A stretch of DNA of 43,364 bases, from NCBI GenBank assembly GCA_048937405.1, contig JBHLNF010000021.1:1-43364 (forward strand), in the 5' to 3' direction. This document shows positions 356-8,489 of the stretch, one piece after another. This DNA comes from Promethearchaeota archaeon (GTDB taxonomy: Archaea > Asgardarchaeota > Lokiarchaeia > Sigyniarchaeales > SOKP01). The notes beneath the pieces were generated by a model. The model did not search any database, had not been told where the DNA came from, and saw only the letters and a program-made list of their open reading frames with translations. The translations under genes and the position numbers were made by a program. Position 1 is the first letter of the stretch. Each line of letters opens with the position of its first letter.

Positions 356-1149
356 TAAGAACCACCCCTTAGTTCATGAATTTTTTCTTTTATATTTTCT
401 GATTGCATTATAGAAGAACCAATTAAGAAAGCATCTGCCTTATATGGAAGAAGAAAGTTGATGTCATCTTTAGTAGAAATTCCACTCTCACTAATTACAC
501 AAGTTTTATTTCCAACAATTTCTTTAATTTTTGGTATTAATTCCTTCGAAGTATTAAGATCTATTAACATATTATTTAAATTACGATTATTTACACCAAT
601 CAACTTGGGTATATGCCCAATTTCGAGTAAAGATTCAATATCTTTTAATTCTGATTTATCGTGAATTTCTATTAATGGTTCAAGATCATATTGAATTGCT
701 AATTCATATAAATTATTTAAGCTACCAAGTTGATTAATTAACAAGATATTAGTGGCTCCAATTTTTTTTGCTAATCGAAGCTGCGATTCATCGAAAACGA
801 AATCCTTCATTAAACAAGGAATTTTAGTAGCATTTACAGCTTCCATAAGATTTTCAAATGAACCATTAAAATATTTTGGTTCTGTAAGTATACTAAGTCC
901 AATTACTCCTGCATTTTCCATTTCTTCTGCAACTTTAGAAACATTTATGTTAGATCTTATACTTCCCAGAGAAGGAGAGGAAGGTTTTATTTCCGAGATT
1001 ATCGAAATTTTTCCTTGTTTACCAATATTCTCACTTAAAGTGATCCTTGAAGAAATTTGAAAAGTCTTAACTAATCTTTCAAATAAATCTATTTGTTTTG
1101 CCAGTGATTTTTTTCTGCTTGCTAAAATTTGATGTAGAATATTGGTCAT
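355..1149 (-). CDS. trpC: Indole-3-glycerol phosphate synthase
   Basis: EIKPSSPS, LSILTEPKYFNGS, LMKDF, IGVNNRNL, SESGI and LIGSSIM motifs. Confidence 0.97.
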   Translation of the reverse strand: MTNILHQILASRKKSLAKQIDLFERLVKTFQISSRITLSENIGKQGKISIISEIKPSSPSLGSIRSNINVSKVAEEMENAGVIGLSILTEPKYFNGSFENLMEAVNATKIPCLMKDFVFDESQLRLAKKIGATNILLINQLGSLNNLYELAIQYDLEPLIEIHDKSELKDIESLLEIGHIPKLIGVNNRNLNNMLIDLNTSKELIPKIKEIVGNKTCVISESGISTKDDINFLLPYKADAFLIGSSIMQSENIKEKIHELRGGS

Positions 1150-2213
1150 TATTTCTTCATAATATTATATTTTAAATTTTCTTTATTTCCACCAGAAACC
1201 TCGATAAAATTCTCGAGTTTCTGAAAAGCTTTGCCTTCTTCTATAGAATTTTTTGCTATAGAAATCCCCTCGTCAATGTCTTTTACAATATCTGCACTAG
1301 TAAGAGCTAAAGCAGCATTCATCAAGACAGTATTATACTTAGCCCCTTTTAATCGATTTTTAAGGATCCCTAAGGCGATTTTCAGATTCTCATCAAGATT
1401 TCCAGCTAATATTTCTTCCACATTGCAATCTGGGAGGTTGAAATCTTTATTTGTTAAAGCATAAGATTCTATATTCCCATTTTTAACCTCAGTTATATAA
1501 TTAATTCCTATAGGAGCTAACTCATCAATTCCATAGGAATTATGTACTGTGAATATATGTTTTCCTCCAAGATTTCCAAGAACCTTTGCCATAACTGGTG
1601 CTAGTTCTTTTTGAAAAACGCCTAGAGTATGACAAGGAGCATTTGCAGGATTTGTTAAAGGACCTAATATGTTGAAAACAGTTCTAATTTTTAATTCTCT
1701 CCTAGTTGGCATTGCATGTTTCATTGCAGGATGAAATAAAGGTGCAAACATAAAACCAATACCTACCTGTTCTATACATTTCTTAACCTCTTCAGGAGGT
1801 AAGTCAATTTTTACACCTAACCCTTCTAATAAATCTGCACTACCACATTTACTTGTAACTGCTCTATTTCCGTGTTTTGCGACTGGAACACCAGCACCCG
1901 CTACAACTAATGCAGATATTGTACTTATATTAAATGTTTTTACTTTATCACCTCCTGTACCACATGTATCTAATAATTCTCCATCTAATTGCGGTTCAAT
2001 TCGATTTGCAAATTCGCGCATAATTCGTGCAAAACCCGTGATCTCTTCTATAGATTCACCTTTCATATTTAAGGCTGTTAAAAATGCTCCCAATTGGGAA
2101 GGGGAAACTTTTCCACTCATTATTTCCCTCATAATATTTTCTGCTTCGCTTGTTGATAAATCAACTTTTCTAATAATTTTATGTAATCCGTTAATTATAT
2201 TTTCTTCTGACAT
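1149..2213 (-). CDS. trpD: Anthranilate phosphoribosyltransferase
   Basis: DTCGTGGD, FNIST, KHGNRAVTSKCGSADLLE and RTVFNILGPLTNP motifs; TAATG overlap with trpC. Confidence 0.98.
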   Translation of the reverse strand: MSEENIINGLHKIIRKVDLSTSEAENIMREIMSGKVSPSQLGAFLTALNMKGESIEEITGFARIMREFANRIEPQLDGELLDTCGTGGDKVKTFNISTISALVVAGAGVPVAKHGNRAVTSKCGSADLLEGLGVKIDLPPEEVKKCIEQVGIGFMFAPLFHPAMKHAMPTRRELKIRTVFNILGPLTNPANAPCHTLGVFQKELAPVMAKVLGNLGGKHIFTVHNSYGIDELAPIGINYITEVKNGNIESYALTNKDFNLPDCNVEEILAGNLDENLKIALGILKNRLKGAKYNTVLMNAALALTSADIVKDIDEGISIAKNSIEEGKAFQKLENFIEVSGGNKENLKYNIMKK

Positions 2214-2250
2214 TTTTCTACTTCTTTTTAAATTTTTATTCTGTTTTATC

Positions 2251-2269
2251 TACACATTATTAATGTGTA
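2251..2269. promoter_or_regulatory. 19-bp palindrome (candidate operator or RNA hairpin) upstream of trpD
   Basis: TACACATTA-T-TAATGTGTA. A TATA-like TTTATTAAAT lies on the - strand at 2300-2291. Confidence 0.45.
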
Positions 2270-2399
2270 ACTTTACTATATTGGAATTCAATTTAATAAA
2301 GCACATATAGAAAATAAGTAAGATGAGTTCAGAAAGGAGGATTAAAGAATAATAGAATGTGAACAATAAAATATGATTTAACCTATGTAAAGCGCGTTC

Positions 2400-2453
2400 T
2401 TATGCGCGCCAAAACCAATGCCAACGAAAAGGAATTATTTTTTCATTAGCCAT
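2400..2453 (-). CDS. Putative trp operon leader peptide MANEKIIPFRWHWFWRA
   Basis: ATG at 2453 and TAA at 2402-2400. Three TGG codons among the last 7 codons. Same strand as trpD, 186 nt upstream of it. A GC hairpin spans the stop codon. Confidence 0.8.
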   Translation of the reverse strand: MANEKIIPFRWHWFWRA

Positions 2454-2502
2454 TTTTTTAAACCATATTTCATATATATTGAAAGAATTAAGGATTCTCA
2501 CT

Positions 2503-2517
2503 ATTTATATTTTTTTG
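2503..2517 (-). promoter_or_regulatory. Candidate BRE/TATA promoter of the trp leader
   Basis: CAAAAAA followed by TATAAATA on the - strand, about 50 nt upstream of the leader ATG. Confidence 0.4.
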
Positions 2518-2675: not shown

Positions 2676-5534
2676 ATGGAGGAAATTGAACCTAAGAAGT
2701 TAACTCCTATGTTGAAACATTGGTATTCAATTAGAAAAAGGTTTCCTTCAGAATACCTCATTGCGTACCGTATGGGAGATTTTTATGAATTCTTTTATGA
2801 TGATGCTGAAAAAATATCAAAACTTTTAGGGATAACCCTAACAAAAAGAGGAGATATTCCCTTAGCAGGGATTCCTCATCATTCTGGTCATAATTATTTT
2901 AATAACCTAATGAATCTTGGTGAAACATTGGTTATAGTTGAACAATTAGAAGATCCTGCTACTGTAAAGGGAAGAATTGTAAAACGTGGGGTTACTCGGG
3001 TACTCTCACCAGGTACAATTATCGAACCAAACTTGCTAAAATCAAATGAAAACAATTATATTGCCTCCATGGTTAAAGAAAAAAATGGATTTGGCGTTGC
3101 TTTTATGGATATATCTACTGGAGAGTTTGTAGCAACTGAAATATCAAATAAGAATCAAGACTCACAAGAACAATTATTGAGTATATTTTCTCAATATGAT
3201 CCTGTAGAATTAATTATACCTCCTGATCTGAAAAAAGATGAGAGACTCTTTATAATATTAACAGACTTAACTAAGGCGATTATTAAATCATATGAGGATC
3301 ATGTTTTTTTACACGAGGAGGCATATTCGTTAATTTCCCGTCATTTCAAAATTACGAATTTAGAAAGTTTTGGTTTAGAGGATAAGCCAATGGCAATTCA
3401 AGCCGCAGGAGGTCTATTAGCTTTTTTAAAAGACACACAACGAGATGTGATTCCAAATATCTTTAAAATCAATATTATCCAAGAAGAAAATGTACTCCAC
3501 TTAGATTATATTACACAGAGAAATTTAGAGTTAATTAATTCACTTTGGGAGAGAGGTAAAGATGCTACATTATATTCTATTTTTAACCACACCCGTACTC
3601 CGATGGGTGCTCGTTTATTAAAAAAGTTTATCCTCCAACCTCTGACAGAAATTAAGGAAATTAATCAACGATTAAAAATCGTCCAAAAGTTTAAAGATGA
3701 TATTTTTCTAAGATCAGATTTAAGGGAAGAATTAGGTGTTATTGGAGATCTAGAAAGATTTATAAATAGAATTAATTTTGCAGGTCGTACTAATGCTCGA
3801 GATCTAATAAATATTAAGAATTCCTTAGAGAAAATTCCTACTATTAAACAATTACTGGAGAAGTCTGATATACCAGAAATTTCAAACTTTCTTGAAAAAA
3901 TAAATAATTTCAACGAAATTAAAGAATTAATTAATATTTCTATTAAGGATAATCCTCCCATTACAGTTAAAGAAGGAGATATTATTAAAAATGGTTTTAA
4001 TAATGATGTAGATGAGCTTAGAGATATAGTGCAGAATGGAAAGAAATATATTTTGGATTACGAGCGAGAACAGAGGAAAAAATGGAATTTAACATCGGGA
4101 TTGAAAGTTGGTTATAATAACATCCTTGGTTATTATATAGAAATAACATTAAGAACTCTTAGTATTATAAAGACTGTTCCTGAAGAATATAATGAGAGAG
4201 CAACCCTTAAAAATGCTAAAAGATACACTACAAAGCGATTAAAGGAGCTTGAAGAGAAAATAGTTAATGCAGAAGAAAAAATAAACGATTTAGAATATGA
4301 GATATTCAACACTATTCGAGAAAAAGTTGAAAAAGAAACTAAAAATATTCTTGAAACTGCCAAAAATATTGCTGTTATTGATGTACTTTCTTGTTTTGCT
4401 GAGATTGCAGAAAAATATAATTATTCTAGACCAATTATCACCCATGATAATAAAATAATCATAAAAGACGGTAGACATCCAGTTATTGAACAAATAAACT
4501 TAGATGAGAAATTTATTCCTAATAATTGTTATTTAGATAATGCAGATGACCAATTATTAATTATTACTGGCCCGAATATGGCTGGTAAAAGTACATTTTT
4601 AAGACAGGTGGCCCTAATTTGTATAATCGCACAAATGGGATGTTTTGTTCCAGCGAAATCTGCCACAATCGGAATAATTGATCAAATTTTTACCCGAATA
4701 GGAGCCTCTGATGATCTGGCGAGGAAGTTAAGTACTTTTATGATTGAAATGACTGAAACTGCTAAAATTCTAAATTTTGCTACACCAAAAAGTCTAGTGA
4801 TCATAGATGAGTTAGGGAGGGGAACAAGCACTAGTGATGGTCAAAGTATCGCAATGGCTACTCTTGAAAAATTAAATAAGTTAAAAGTTAAAACTTTATT
4901 CAGCACCCATTATCATCAATTAACGGAACTTAATTTACCAGGAGTAAAAAATTATCATTTAGACATTATTGAAAATGATGATGGGACTATAAATTTTGTA
5001 AGAACCTTAAAACCAGGAAGTACAGATAAATCTTATGGTATTCATGTTGCAAAATTAGCAGGAATTCCTGATGACGTGATAATAAGAGCTTTTGAAATCC
5101 TTGAACAAATTGAAGAAAAGGATCCTTTTAGGACAACAGTTAGACAAAATGGGGAATCTGCATCATCAAGTAAATATTACGATAAAATTATTGAAGAAAA
5201 AAAAGTTGAGCTAAAAAAGCTGAATGGAGAACTTAAAGCAATAAGGGCGTCATTAAACGAATGTATCGAAGATTTAAACCAAAATCAAAAAGAATTGTCA
5301 AAAAAGCAGAATGAAATTAAAGAGATTGAACTAAAAAAAGCAAAAGTTTCTGAAAGTAAACCTTCAAAAAAGAAAAAGTATGTACAGACAAGTTTATTTG
5401 AGCCATTAAGAAATAAAGAACATATAAACGATTTAGTTCACTTTATTAAGGAAATTATTATAAATTCTGAAAATCCAAGTGATTTAAAAGATAAATTAGA
5501 TGAATTAGTAAAAAAGTTAAAAAAACTCAGCTAA
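2676..5534 (+). CDS. mutS: DNA mismatch repair protein MutS (MutS1 type)
   Basis: YRMGDFYEFF mismatch-binding motif, TGPNMAGKST Walker A, STFMIEM, DELGRGTS, STHYH, SYGIHVAKLAG. Confidence 0.98.
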   Translation: MEEIEPKKLTPMLKHWYSIRKRFPSEYLIAYRMGDFYEFFYDDAEKISKLLGITLTKRGDIPLAGIPHHSGHNYFNNLMNLGETLVIVEQLEDPATVKGRIVKRGVTRVLSPGTIIEPNLLKSNENNYIASMVKEKNGFGVAFMDISTGEFVATEISNKNQDSQEQLLSIFSQYDPVELIIPPDLKKDERLFIILTDLTKAIIKSYEDHVFLHEEAYSLISRHFKITNLESFGLEDKPMAIQAAGGLLAFLKDTQRDVIPNIFKINIIQEENVLHLDYITQRNLELINSLWERGKDATLYSIFNHTRTPMGARLLKKFILQPLTEIKEINQRLKIVQKFKDDIFLRSDLREELGVIGDLERFINRINFAGRTNARDLINIKNSLEKIPTIKQLLEKSDIPEISNFLEKINNFNEIKELINISIKDNPPITVKEGDIIKNGFNNDVDELRDIVQNGKKYILDYEREQRKKWNLTSGLKVGYNNILGYYIEITLRTLSIIKTVPEEYNERATLKNAKRYTTKRLKELEEKIVNAEEKINDLEYEIFNTIREKVEKETKNILETAKNIAVIDVLSCFAEIAEKYNYSRPIITHDNKIIIKDGRHPVIEQINLDEKFIPNNCYLDNADDQLLIITGPNMAGKSTFLRQVALICIIAQMGCFVPAKSATIGIIDQIFTRIGASDDLARKLSTFMIEMTETAKILNFATPKSLVIIDELGRGTSTSDGQSIAMATLEKLNKLKVKTLFSTHYHQLTELNLPGVKNYHLDIIENDDGTINFVRTLKPGSTDKSYGIHVAKLAGIPDDVIIRAFEILEQIEEKDPFRTTVRQNGESASSSKYYDKIIEEKKVELKKLNGELKAIRASLNECIEDLNQNQKELSKKQNEIKEIELKKAKVSESKPSKKKKYVQTSLFEPLRNKEHINDLVHFIKEIIINSENPSDLKDKLDELVKKLKKLS

Positions 5535-6466
5535 GGAATTACAACTGGAATTATAAAAACTATAGTGCTTAAATAAACATAATATATAGTTATTATTGAA
5601 ACTAGGATAATTCGAAACAAATTCTTTCTATGTTCATTTGTTAAATTTTCCAGAAAAATTATCAATAATAAACCAATAAACATTAAATGTGAAGGTTGTA
5701 ATGCTTTCCACATAATTGAATCGATAAAGAAAATCCCATGAATCTCCTCATCATTATAAAACCAATTATTAATCATTTGAAAGAAATAATCAGGGAAAAT
5801 TATATAGGGGAGTGAAATTAGAAGAAACGGAATTAAATAATAAATTAAATCTTTCCATTTAACTCTTCTAGCTAGAATTATAACTGGAAGAAATAGTAAT
5901 GCAGTTATCTTAAACGTGCTCAATACGAATAATATACCAGAAATCCATTTTTTTTCTTTTTCCAAAAATACATAAGAGTAAAACAAAAAAAAACAAATTA
6001 AAAAATTAACATTATTAAAATATCCATCGATACTGAATCCTACTATGCTTAAAATATAAAAAATTAATAGATCCTTCTTTTCCTTAAATATCTTTGGTGC
6101 TTCCCTAACTATTATTATTGTTAATATTAATCTTAGTATATCCCAGACATAAATCATTATTATCAAATTATTTGGATTTAAGTAGACTGGGAGGTAAATT
6201 GGAAAGAATAAAAAGTACCAAAAATAAAGATAATAAGGAGGCCAATCAGATATTGCAATATCATTATAGAAATCAACCAACCCATTATTCATGCCTTCTA
6301 TTAGAATCTTAAAATCAATATCTTTTGTTTGATTAACCCATTCAGATACATCGAGGAAAAAGATTCTTAAAATTATGAGAATTATCGTAATAATTATAAA
6401 AAAGCAAATAAAATACTGGGGAATTGAAGATTTTTCTTTATTTATCTCTGCAGTTTGATTACTCAT
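5531..6466 (-). CDS. Polytopic membrane protein, probable GT-C (GT87/DUF2029-like) glycosyltransferase
   Basis: Many TM helices; DF...Y...YLYFW...FFP, N.N and FK motif pattern. Confidence 0.55.
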   Translation of the reverse strand: MSNQTAEINKEKSSIPQYFICFFIIITIILIILRIFFLDVSEWVNQTKDIDFKILIEGMNNGLVDFYNDIAISDWPPYYLYFWYFLFFPIYLPVYLNPNNLIIMIYVWDILRLILTIIIVREAPKIFKEKKDLLIFYILSIVGFSIDGYFNNVNFLICFFLFYSYVFLEKEKKWISGILFVLSTFKITALLFLPVIILARRVKWKDLIYYLIPFLLISLPYIIFPDYFFQMINNWFYNDEEIHGIFFIDSIMWKALQPSHLMFIGLLLIIFLENLTNEHRKNLFRIILVSIITIYYVYLSTIVFIIPVVIP

Positions 6467-6635
6467 AATATAATTCTAGTATAGTGATTAAATGTATTAA
6501 TAGAGATTTAAAAGACTTACTTTCCGTTAAAATTTATTTTAACCTTAATAGTGTAATATTTTAAATTTGATTGAAATGAGAAATTTATTAGCTAATAAAA
6601 TTATCTTAACATGGTAAAAAATTTTTAGATGAACA

Positions 6636-8489
6636 GTGAAAGTAAGAAAAATTAAAAAAATCCTACACGCGGATAAAATAGCTGCTGGAGAAGTAGTTGA
6701 TAGACCTGCTAATATTGTAAAGGAATTAGTTGAAAATAGTATCGATGCGAATGCATCAGAAATAAGAATTATTGTTAGGAACGCGGGAAAATCTTTAATT
6801 CATGTAATTGATGATGGTATTGGGATCCCCTCAGAGGATATTGAAATAGCTTTTGAAAGGCATACTAGTAGCAAAATTAGAAGTATTGAAGATTTAGAAA
6901 GTCTTTCTACATTAGGATTTAGGGGTGAAGCACTTGCTAGCATAGCAGCAGTAAGTAAAGTTGAAATAATTTCTCGAGTTAAAGATGAAGAGAAAGGAGG
7001 GCAGCTAATTATCGAAGGCGGAAAAATTATAGACAAAAAGAGAATTTCCTGCCCAGTTGGAACTGATATACAAGTAAAAAACTTATTTTACAATTTACCA
7101 GCACGACAAAAATTTCTCAAAACAGATGCAACAGAATTAGGTCATATTACAGATATTGTTCAAAGATATTCTTTAGCATACCCAAAACTCCATTTTATAT
7201 ATCATCATAATGAGTTAGATATTCTTAATTGTCCTGCTTCGAATGATTTGAAAACAATTGTATTCCACGTTTACGGAAAAAAAATTGCTAAATTCTCTGA
7301 ACTTATTGATTTTGAAGAACAAAACCCTTATTTTAAAGTAAGTGGCTTACTAGGTCACCCTGAAATTTCTAAGAAAAACCGAACATATTCAAGTTTATTT
7401 ATTAATCATCGATATGTAGTGAGTGATTTGTTATCAAGAGCAATCCAAGAATCTTATAAGGGAACTCTCATGGTGAGTAAATACCCATTTTATATTCTTA
7501 ATATTAATCTAGATCCTTCCGTAATTGACTTCAACGTTCATCCAAAGAAACTCCAAGTTAGATTTGAAAGAGAAGAATATGTTTATAATAAATTATACAA
7601 TATAATTAGAAATTTTGTTGAAGATAAGTTTATAATAAAGGAAGCAAAATATATATCTACAGAATTACATGATTTCATACCAAAGAAAGAAAAAGTACCA
7701 GAAGTGAAAAAGGAAATATCAGAGGTTCAAATTGAGCAAGAAAAAATAACTCAGGAACAACCCTTAAAAACTGAGGAATTTATACAACTAAGTTTAGAGG
7801 ATCAAAGAATTACAGATAAGCCATTTAAAAAACTTCCACTTGAAGCTCTACTAAGGGAAAAATACATAATTTCCGAAAATTTTCCTAAATTACGATTAAT
7901 TTCTCATACTGGTCAATTGAGCAATAAAGTTTATGTTGTTTTAGAAGGGATTAACGAAAATAATGAAGAGGGTCTATTCATCCTTGATCAACATGCTGCC
8001 TCTGAGAGGATAAAGAAAGAAAGATTCATCGAAGCTTTTGAAACATCAAAAATGAATAGACAAAAATTAATCTCTCCTTTAAAAATAAATGTAACTCCAA
8101 GTGAAAAGTACTTTTTACAAGATAATCTCAATGAAATCAAGAAACTCGGTTTTATCTTTGAATATTTTGGTGGGAATACGTTTCTTTTAAGAGAAATTCC
8201 AACTATTATGGGAAAAGTCCCAAATTTAAACATTATAAAAGAAATTATCGGTGATATAACTGAAATCGGTAAAGACAAGAGTTTTTCGGAGGTAACAGAA
8301 GATATTATAAACTATTTATCTTGTCATAGAAGCATTCGTGGGGGTGATGATCTCTCCTTAAAAGATATAAGAAATTTAATAATTAGCTTAGGTAAATGTA
8401 AAGACTCATACCATTGTGCTCATGGAAGACCTACAATAAGATTCTTTTCCTATAAAGAATTAGATAAGTTATTTAAAAGGATAGTATGA
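6636..8489 (+). CDS. mutL: DNA mismatch repair endonuclease MutL
   Basis: IAAGEVVDRP, VKELVENSIDA, GFRGEAL, DFNVHPKK; C-terminal DQHAASERIKKE, SCH and CAHGRP metal-binding motifs. Confidence 0.98.
   Translation: MKVRKIKKILHADKIAAGEVVDRPANIVKELVENSIDANASEIRIIVRNAGKSLIHVIDDGIGIPSEDIEIAFERHTSSKIRSIEDLESLSTLGFRGEALASIAAVSKVEIISRVKDEEKGGQLIIEGGKIIDKKRISCPVGTDIQVKNLFYNLPARQKFLKTDATELGHITDIVQRYSLAYPKLHFIYHHNELDILNCPASNDLKTIVFHVYGKKIAKFSELIDFEEQNPYFKVSGLLGHPEISKKNRTYSSLFINHRYVVSDLLSRAIQESYKGTLMVSKYPFYILNINLDPSVIDFNVHPKKLQVRFEREEYVYNKLYNIIRNFVEDKFIIKEAKYISTELHDFIPKKEKVPEVKKEISEVQIEQEKITQEQPLKTEEFIQLSLEDQRITDKPFKKLPLEALLREKYIISENFPKLRLISHTGQLSNKVYVVLEGINENNEEGLFILDQHAASERIKKERFIEAFETSKMNRQKLISPLKINVTPSEKYFLQDNLNEIKKLGFIFEYFGGNTFLLREIPTIMGKVPNLNIIKEIIGDITEIGKDKSFSEVTEDIINYLSCHRSIRGGDDLSLKDIRNLIISLGKCKDSYHCAHGRPTIRFFSYKELDKLFKRIV

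Follow-up and report, generated by a model that had tools for sequence, protein, structure and literature searches.

How does an archaeon of the Asgard group sense the supply of tryptophan (Trp) at its trp operon? The question is raised by a window of 43,364 nucleotides (nt) from a Promethearchaeota archaeon (assembly GCA_048937405.1, contig JBHLNF010000021.1, positions 1 to 43,364), in which a short upstream open reading frame (uORF) precedes the trp operon on the minus strand. This uORF, MANEKIIPFRWHWFWRA, comprises 17 codons and a stop codon at 2453-2400, with the ATG at 2453-2451 and the TAA at 2402-2400. Its Trp codons are arranged as W11-x-W13-x-W15 (TGG at 2423-2421, 2417-2415 and 2411-2409), the presumed sensing site, and all three fall within the final seven codons. 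Leader-peptide attenuation is the textbook example of how coupled transcription and translation can control genes. To our knowledge it is known only as a bacterial device, and we found no description of it for archaea in open-access papers and bioRxiv. We conclude that the uORF is very likely a Trp sensor read by the ribosome. The case is made by the sequence features, their conservation, an exclusive tie to Trp-synthesis genes and covariation at the RNA level, all of which are observed. The original prediction had placed a 17-codon uORF with three clustered Trp codons on the trpDCF strand, and the coordinates as well as the Pfam calls for trpD, trpC and trpF agree with it.

A cluster of Trp codons alone carries little information. 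A six-frame count of the genome (4.47 Mb, 29% GC, scored 100% complete; closest relatives in public records are Promethearchaeota metagenome-assembled genomes, MAGs) yields 315 clusters of three TGG inside five in-frame codons. Because such clusters are this numerous, the Trp triplet by itself is not rare, and a lone cluster is unremarkable by chance. The position of the cluster is more selective. Just six short open reading frames (ORFs) genome-wide have an ATG start, 8-35 codons, at least three Trp within eight residues and a location at most 350 nt upstream of an ORF of at least 120 residues, and three of these six lie at Trp-synthesis loci. The genome contains three Trp leaders, and all of them are at Trp loci, namely before trpD, before trpB2 and after trpG. 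In each of them the stop codon lies in the loop of a GC-hairpin.

Conservation of the uORF among relatives is strong. For trpD and trpB2 loci taken from species-representative genomes and metagenomes, we applied a strict rule that requires an ATG start, 10-40 codons, at least three Trp in the last nine residues and a position at most 700 nt upstream on the strand of the gene. Leaders are found at 30 of the 38 Asgard trpD loci and at 9 of the 11 trpB2 loci, or 39 of 49 in total. Of the ten Asgard loci failing the rule, most carry two Trp or start with a codon other than ATG. Under the same rule, 0 of the 49 antisense strands and 1 of 119 non-Asgard trpD or trpB2 loci give a leader; the outgroup control is imperfect in that trpD there seldom heads its operon, a weakness that the antisense control does not share. 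A lack of Trp-rich uORFs in orthologous leaders had been named from the outset as an observation that would speak against a leader peptide, and at 30 of the 38 trpD loci the uORF is present. The N-terminal residues of the peptide vary freely, while length, frame, start, stop and the W-x-W pattern stay constant. The uORF has mostly 16-17 codons in close trpB2-type leaders and 15-23 across close relatives, and the W-x-W(-x-W) ends 1-3 codons before the stop across families of differing GC content. The pattern extends to GC-rich relatives of other families (L007-L009), whose nucleotide sequence is unrelated. Two relatives (L035 and L042) have trpD leaders with Cys at three Trp positions (…STWFCICCWHA; TGG to TGT/TGC), which by its sequence could be either a decaying leader or one with an altered sensed amino acid.

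The end of the uORF is embedded in hairpin P1 (2391..2410, minus strand), seen in the sequence and in folding as GGCGCG / CAUAAGAA / CGCGCU with arms at 2410-2405 and 2396-2391. The loop CATAAGAA has 8 nt and contains the stop codon of the uORF, and the last Trp codon is part of the 5' arm. A TTT follows at 2391-2389, its first T being the final base of the 3' arm. The GC hairpin with the stop in its loop and a subsequent TTT, as originally described, is thus borne out at 2410-2389. A pair enclosing the uORF stop is predicted in all 23 leaders that were folded, and in 19 of them none of the three stop bases is paired. P1 hairpins of different leader subtypes are made of differing sequences and have Trp codons in the 5' arm. 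In the trpB2-type alignment (A4, 24 rows, with the L266 row counted as unpaired), pairing reaches 96.5% across P1 plus its extension P1a, and two positions covary, with AU in 9, GC in 8 and GU in 4 rows at one and UA in 19 and GC in 3 rows at the other. The hairpin covariation that the original prediction proposed to look for in related leaders is present for P1/P1a in this trpB2-type alignment.

P1 is nested in a larger fold. The segment AUGAAAUAUGGUUUAA of the 5' untranslated region, just 5' of the uORF start (2458..2473, minus strand), pairs with 2381-2366 in both the minimum free energy and the centroid folds. The 3' strand of this helix P0, UUAAAUCAUAUUUUAU (2366..2381, minus strand), is U-rich and contains a U4 tract at 2370-2367. 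The domain from 2479 to 2362 folds at -32.7 kcal/mol with z = -4.04, and 0 of 200 shuffles are equally stable. When closed through P0 and P1, it encloses the entire uORF together with its start and the probable ribosome-binding site (RBS). Across 20 trpD-type leaders, 86% of the cells are paired over the 16 columns of P0, compared to 35-47% when the strands are slid. The changes within P0 are mainly G.U and U.G wobbles, which pair on the sense strand only, and true covariation is scarce. Helices of other sequence occupy the same position in L041, L120 and L166.

Between the uORF and the gene lies a second conserved structured RNA, module B (2248..2312, minus strand), supported by a covariance model and by covariation. 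From 5' to 3' it contains C1 with the sequence AUGUG (2306-2302), the outer and inner stems of P3 (2301-2271) and a CACAU element (2267-2263). CACAU can pair either with C1, forming P3ext, or with a second AUGUG at 2257-2253, forming P4 (2269-2251), the alternative fold of the module. P3 is 90.8% paired and its covariation score is above that of 500 of 500 shuffles. For P3ext, pairing amounts to 80.8% and there are 5 double changes. P4 occurs in two registers and does not exceed shuffle controls. P3ext and P4 are mutually exclusive and conserved, and neither is followed by a U-run. A TATA-like TTTATTAAAT is also found inside the module. The trpB2 subtype has in addition an AU-rich hairpin P2 and a helix P5, which joins a U6 tract to an A-tract after P4 and is 85.5% paired.

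Module B also bears on the link between leader and Trp synthesis. In the present genome, the covariance model R1 matches only the trpD and trpB2 leaders; R1 searches lean mainly on sequence conservation and the P3 pairs, and the P3ext 3' strand in the model is set two columns too far 3'. In the order, 95 of 150 genomes have matches, all in one family, with 94 of 130 genomes there versus 0 of 19 in three other families. Where close relatives carry module B, it sits 85-108 nt after the uORF stop. Among the loci located by module B alone, 28 were examined; every one of them has a Trp-rich uORF 63-87 nt upstream, and because of this complete association we regard uORF and module B as acting as one unit. 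The gene downstream is TrpB2 at 25 of these loci and TrpD at 2, with no long ORF called close by at the remaining one. From the covariation of module B and its linkage to the uORF, together with helix P0, whose pairing needs the 5' untranslated region to be RNA, we argue for one RNA that begins 5' of the uORF and reaches the gene. Judged by its sequence, the leader is a structured RNA of ~240 nt.

Could the ORF be incidental, and the conserved element be a nucleic acid that binds a protein or a ligand, such as UGG repeats for a TRAP-like protein, palindromic DNA operators for a TrpY-like repressor or a second promoter in module B? The UGG triplets do recur at 6-nt spacing, P0, P3 and P4 are palindromic as DNA, the internal TATA-like box could serve as promoter, and neither P0 nor P4 rises above its shuffle control. 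We nevertheless consider this explanation most improbable. The TRAP profile (MtrB, PF02081) has no match in this genome scored 100% complete, while the positive control found B. subtilis only. Start, stop and frame of the uORF are retained despite sequence divergence, and the antisense strands of the 49 loci give no leader. P3 and P1 undergo compensatory A-U/G-C/U-A changes, and many G.U pairs exist on the sense strand only. With a transcription start site (TSS) set by the internal TATA-like box, the covarying P3 outer stem and P3ext would be upstream of the transcript. Finally, the genome contains other cognate leaders.

A second Trp leader, MATVRNFCWQWPWRWR, lies on contig C7 (L112, ~2792-2742, minus strand), 149 nt before the TrpB2 gene (L112:1179-2594). 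This gene matches the NCBIfam equivalog of the TrpB-like enzyme with 636 bits. The stop of the leader is located in the loop of UUGGC/GCCAA, and module B is present. Among genomes of the same genus, module B is found in 42 of the 52 searched, usually as a single copy, and a true trpD in 1 of 24 sampled. The third Trp leader, MTTIRKNLDLRKSFINWFWVLHWHV, comes directly after trpG on contig C28 (L271, 5320-5397, plus strand). It has 25 codons and ends in WFWVLHWHV. A GCACG/CGUGC hairpin has the UAG stop in its loop, and GCAAUGG and a long-range inverted repeat (UUAGAAUUUCU ... AGAAAUUCUAA) come next. The leader is positioned 212 nt before a gene that fuses a GNAT domain with an S-adenosylmethionine-dependent methyltransferase (5609-6766). 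In other MAGs (L034, L035 and L161-L166) the same leader subtype precedes trpD. The third leader and the trpD leader have in common a promoter-like block, ATATAAATA-N7-AATCCTTA.

The genome also contains candidate leaders for further amino acids. One uORF, with seven Leu codons at its end (L272:1933-2034, minus strand, contig C7), lies 87 nt before LeuA, the 2-isopropylmalate synthase, and continues into a 48-nt hairpin and UUUU. An Ile-rich uORF (L273:178-249, plus strand, contig C20) is found 105 nt before the citramalate synthase gene cimA, with its last Ile codons and stop within a hairpin. A second Ile-rich uORF (L274, ~2382-2456, minus strand, contig C28) is located ~330 nt before ileS, the gene of isoleucyl-tRNA synthetase. 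In folding, the LeuA and cimA leaders have a hairpin that begins at or right after the regulatory codons. Frames rich in Ile or Leu are, however, frequent in AT-rich DNA. The occurrence of these uORFs beside the Trp leaders would fit a general strategy. A quick scan of the genome recovered no leader for His or Arg.

The leaders for Leu and Ile also bear on the nature of the signal. An arrest peptide comparable to TnaC or to the arginine attenuator peptide of fungi would let free Trp in the exit tunnel stall the ribosome at the stop codon and turn the operon off. Such a peptide would explain why a C-terminal motif is kept beyond the Trp residues, WQWPW.WQ in trpB2-type and W.WRA or W.WR. in trpD-type leaders, 0-2 residues from the stop, and why the stop has a fixed place in the P1 loop, and it would give the right sign of regulation with no terminator/antiterminator pair. 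The conserved non-Trp codons (CAG, CCU, CGN), however, double as the 5' strands of P1 and P1a, and RNA pairing explains them. Distant relatives retain the Trp residues only. Leaders with runs of Leu or Ile fit sensing of codon hunger, which offers a simpler common mechanism, and we therefore regard an arrest peptide as very unlikely.

With a ribosome-read sensor as the preferred reading, the question becomes how the uORF controls the genes behind it. We infer, rather than observe, that the uORF is translated, where transcription starts, which way the regulation runs and how the output is brought about. Our proposal, which we think probable, is that the uORF acts as a Trp-sensing leader peptide and that a stalled ribosome would hold the domain open and thereby keep the operon on. 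The first ribosome would read the uORF while transcription of the leader continues. With ample charged tRNA-Trp, it would clear W11, W13 and W15, terminate at the stop inside the loop of P1 and depart. The uORF region would then close into the hairpin domain of P1 and P0, the presumed OFF state. OFF would most likely be reached when transcription ends prematurely or pauses in the U-rich RNA at the domain's 3' foot. Since the closed domain would bury the uORF start, further ribosome loading would be blocked and only the first ribosome, which translates during transcription, would take part in sensing. Under Trp scarcity, this ribosome would stall on the Trp codons with its footprint over the P1 5' arm and neighbouring codons, the polymerase would proceed through the open domain and the operon would be expressed. 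The stalled ribosome itself would be the antiterminator, and module B, in its P3ext or its P4 fold, may pass the decision on or contribute to it.

Which signal could end transcription prematurely? The original prediction had pointed to a factor, FttA/aCPSF1, acting on the U-rich RNA. The U-rich untranslated RNA after the short ORF might serve as an entry or recognition site for the factor. General termination by FttA/aCPSF1 and its quality control of translation coupling in archaea have been described (PMC11616081, PMC8716108, PMC7515710). According to the steric-exclusion hypothesis put forward in PMC11616081, FttA acts on polymerases that lack a trailing ribosome. As far as the available text of these papers goes, they concern general termination and not amino-acid-specific leaders, and a step of RNA structure would have to intervene here. 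Plain polarity would lower expression under Trp starvation, because a stalled ribosome uncouples from RNA polymerase (RNAP) just like a released one. Simple FttA polarity is rejected on logic, as stalling would raise termination, the wrong sign for a biosynthetic operon. The idea of Trp attenuation in an Asgard-like archaeon, as first proposed, therefore stands in one part and is in doubt in the other: the ribosome-read Trp leader peptide is strongly supported by the comparative data, and FttA/aCPSF1 termination as its output meets a problem of logic.

The spacer between the uORF stop and the ATG of trpD at 2213 is 186 nt long (T72 A70 C25 G19). Its first 110 nt (T53 A28 C20 G9) are 66% U/C and 8% G, in line with the U/C-rich, G-poor stretch of about 100 nt that was initially noticed before trpD. 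A U/C-rich, G-poor segment of the spacer, which includes CCUCCUUUCU, lies at 2313..2365 on the minus strand. Runs of T are frequent in this genome. At least four T occur in 54% of random 60-nt windows, and at least six in 12% of random windows versus 29% after stop codons. We therefore dropped the U-tract as evidence of a terminator signal here, and the U4 tract at 2370-2367 carries no weight, because tracts of its length are found in more than half of random windows.

Several findings weigh against the proposed switch. The U4 tract is not above background, and the GC-rich relatives L007 and L008 have no U-tract of at least four after P1. A GC-rich stem with U-run in bacterial style is not present before trpD, where the AU-rich P0 stem with UUUUAUU is all that we find. 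Termination by archaeal RNAP is reported to occur at oligo-U with no need for a hairpin, and hairpin-dependent termination is therefore not established for archaea. The classical 2:3 candidate, pairing of the P1a 3' arm with C1, reaches 75% paired and is within the shuffle range, so that this pairing is suggestive only as a putative antiterminator. In accord with the original prediction, which saw no full antiterminator/terminator pair, the leader has no intrinsic terminator, and no convincing antiterminator was found. P1a is weak in the lineage of the present genome. In the 20 trpD-type leaders, covariation of P0 does not exceed the shuffle control, and P0 was sought and not found in the main trpB2-type leaders (z near 0). 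Folding with a ribosome mask, carried out for the own leader, for several relatives and for L007, gives no downstream change in structure or in RBS accessibility. A ribosome paused at the stop codon would melt P1 as well, and our model thus requires a kinetic difference between stalling at the Trp codons and pausing at the stop. Given these points, we propose premature termination as the output only tentatively.

The same sensor could be connected to a different output. Output at translation or RNA stability is possible, if somewhat doubtful. In its explicit form, this alternative states that the leader fold (P0/P1, P3ext/P4) sets how translation of the first gene is initiated or how the mRNA is processed or kept stable, and we judge it rather unlikely but a serious rival. 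Module B with its two exclusive conserved folds is located near the RBS, and the lack of U-tracts after P1 in the GC-rich relatives is readily accommodated. Conservation of the trpB2-type U6 tract is explained with no need for termination, since it is a strand of the conserved helix P5. In the modelling, on the other hand, the RBS accessibility is unaltered by the ribosome mask. Pairing between the spacer and the RBS region of trpD is not significant against shuffles, with duplex z-scores near 0, and sequestration of the Shine-Dalgarno (SD) sequence by the pyrimidine-rich spacer is rejected on these scores. The true SD of trpB2 (GGUAA) is outside P4. In five relatives a gene of ~65-100 codons separates module B from trpD, and the RBS under control would be that of this gene.

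A plausible case of SD pairing is found in one relative. In L009 (relative G031), the SD sequence of trpD, AAGGAGGG, pairs with an upstream CCCUCCUU over 8 bp, with a U7 tract before it, ~45 nt upstream of trpD. This pairing speaks for an output at translation, and by its sequence L009 is a clearer candidate for SD sequestration and termination than any of the AT-rich leaders. The intervening ORF is located at L034:2200-2496, L036:2238-2492 and L044:2242-2496 and is also found in L002 and L041. In L002, L034, L036 and L044 it conserves a C-terminal motif LIN...MLGPEK.xTARFI. No Pfam family matches it, the present genome lacks a homologue, and for that reason we dropped it here as a possible regulator. 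The present trpD locus looks like a deletion that fused the start region of the intervening ORF to trpD.

The leader is followed on the minus strand by trpD (anthranilate phosphoribosyltransferase; 1149..2213, ATG 2213, PF00591 and PF02885), the first structural gene, then by trpC (1149-355) and by the 5' part of trpF (355-2), both assigned by Pfam, with trpF interrupted by the contig end. The rest of the operon, trpF', trpB, trpA, an iron-sulfur (Fe-S) protein gene, trpE and trpG, is found at the start of contig C28. Joined across the two contigs, the gene order is trpD, trpC, trpF, trpB, trpA, Fe-S protein gene, trpE and trpG. The Fe-S gene between trpA and trpE (L271, 2418-3134) encodes 238 residues and is QueG/reductive-dehalogenase-like; its matches to these families are weak with 46 and 29 bits, under the family cut-offs. 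Upstream of the leader, a TATA-like box TATAAATA (2502..2509, minus strand) with a putative promoter role is found 49-56 nt 5' of the uORF ATG, and a conserved AATCCTTAA lies 3' of it (~2496-2488). From the TATAAATA box, the TSS is probably near 2480-2478, ~26 nt 5' of the uORF. The block ATATAAATA-N7-(A/T)TCCTTA recurs in the trpD leaders of relatives. Divergent from the trp operon, the window contains a full-length bacterial-type MutS gene (domains I-V) at 2676-5534 on the plus strand, and mutS and the Trp leader have a 460-bp divergent promoter region in common. A MutL gene is located nearby at 6636-8489 on the same strand.

By analogy, the leader looks like the ribosome-based amino-acid sensors of bacteria. 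Similar to enterobacterial trpL (RF00513), a short uORF with Trp codons near its end heads the trp operon, and cognate leaders are found at several operons of one genome. In the 1:2 hairpin of E. coli the Trp codons are in the 5' arm and the stop in the loop region, and the geometry of P1 is alike. The differences are substantial. The host is an archaeon with eukaryote-like RNAP, and the Trp codons are spaced as W-x-W-x-W instead of a tandem WW. In contrast to trpL, there is no GC-rich 3:4 terminator with U-run, no clear 2:3 antiterminator and no Rfam match: a cmscan of 2150-2700 at E<=10 returned three chance-level matches to unrelated families and none to Trp_leader RF00513. Module B and helix P0, which encloses the uORF, are extra, and the same type of leader also precedes a lone trpB2.

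Other known systems share single aspects. The TRAP/anti-TRAP system of Bacillus likewise involves a trp leader, regularly spaced triplet repeats and alternative RNA folds; TRAP, however, binds 9-11 (G/U)AG repeats, whereas here 3-5 UGG codons are part of an ORF. In Methanothermobacter, TrpY is a DNA-binding repressor that acts at TRP boxes of the promoter and involves no leader peptide. It represents archaeal Trp regulation as well, but by a DNA-binding protein, while the present locus has a leader peptide. Polycysteine leaderless uORFs serve as attenuators in mycobacteria according to the available text of bioRxiv 10.1101/834739. As in the Trp leader, a short ORF rich in one amino acid senses this amino acid before the operon genes; unlike the Trp leader, the system described there is bacterial and leaderless. 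Relative to the original prediction, the analysis adds the trpD-type enclosing helix P0, module B with its two exclusive folds, the other two Trp leaders of the genome, including the one after trpG, and the finding that U-runs are uninformative in this genome.

Taken further, Asgard archaea might hold a system of ribosome-read leaders, here for Trp three times, for Leu, for Ile and possibly for His and Arg, that operates with eukaryote-like RNAP and a non-bacterial switch. In this switch a domain would be opened by the ribosome, its closure would lead to termination assisted by a U-tract or a factor, and the lineage-specific RNA module would aid the decision. We offer this generalization with some reserve, as a conceivable and somewhat less than probable scenario. 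The structured leader RNA represents a new family that has no Rfam entry. If our reading is true, the prokaryotes most closely related to eukaryotes would make regulatory use of functional transcription-translation coupling. The leaders would then also provide a compact natural test bed for how archaeal RNAP, Spt4/5 and FttA react to a ribosome trailing behind and to structure in the nascent RNA, and they would explain how Lokiarchaea, which are mostly auxotrophic for Trp, tune their single trpB2 gene.

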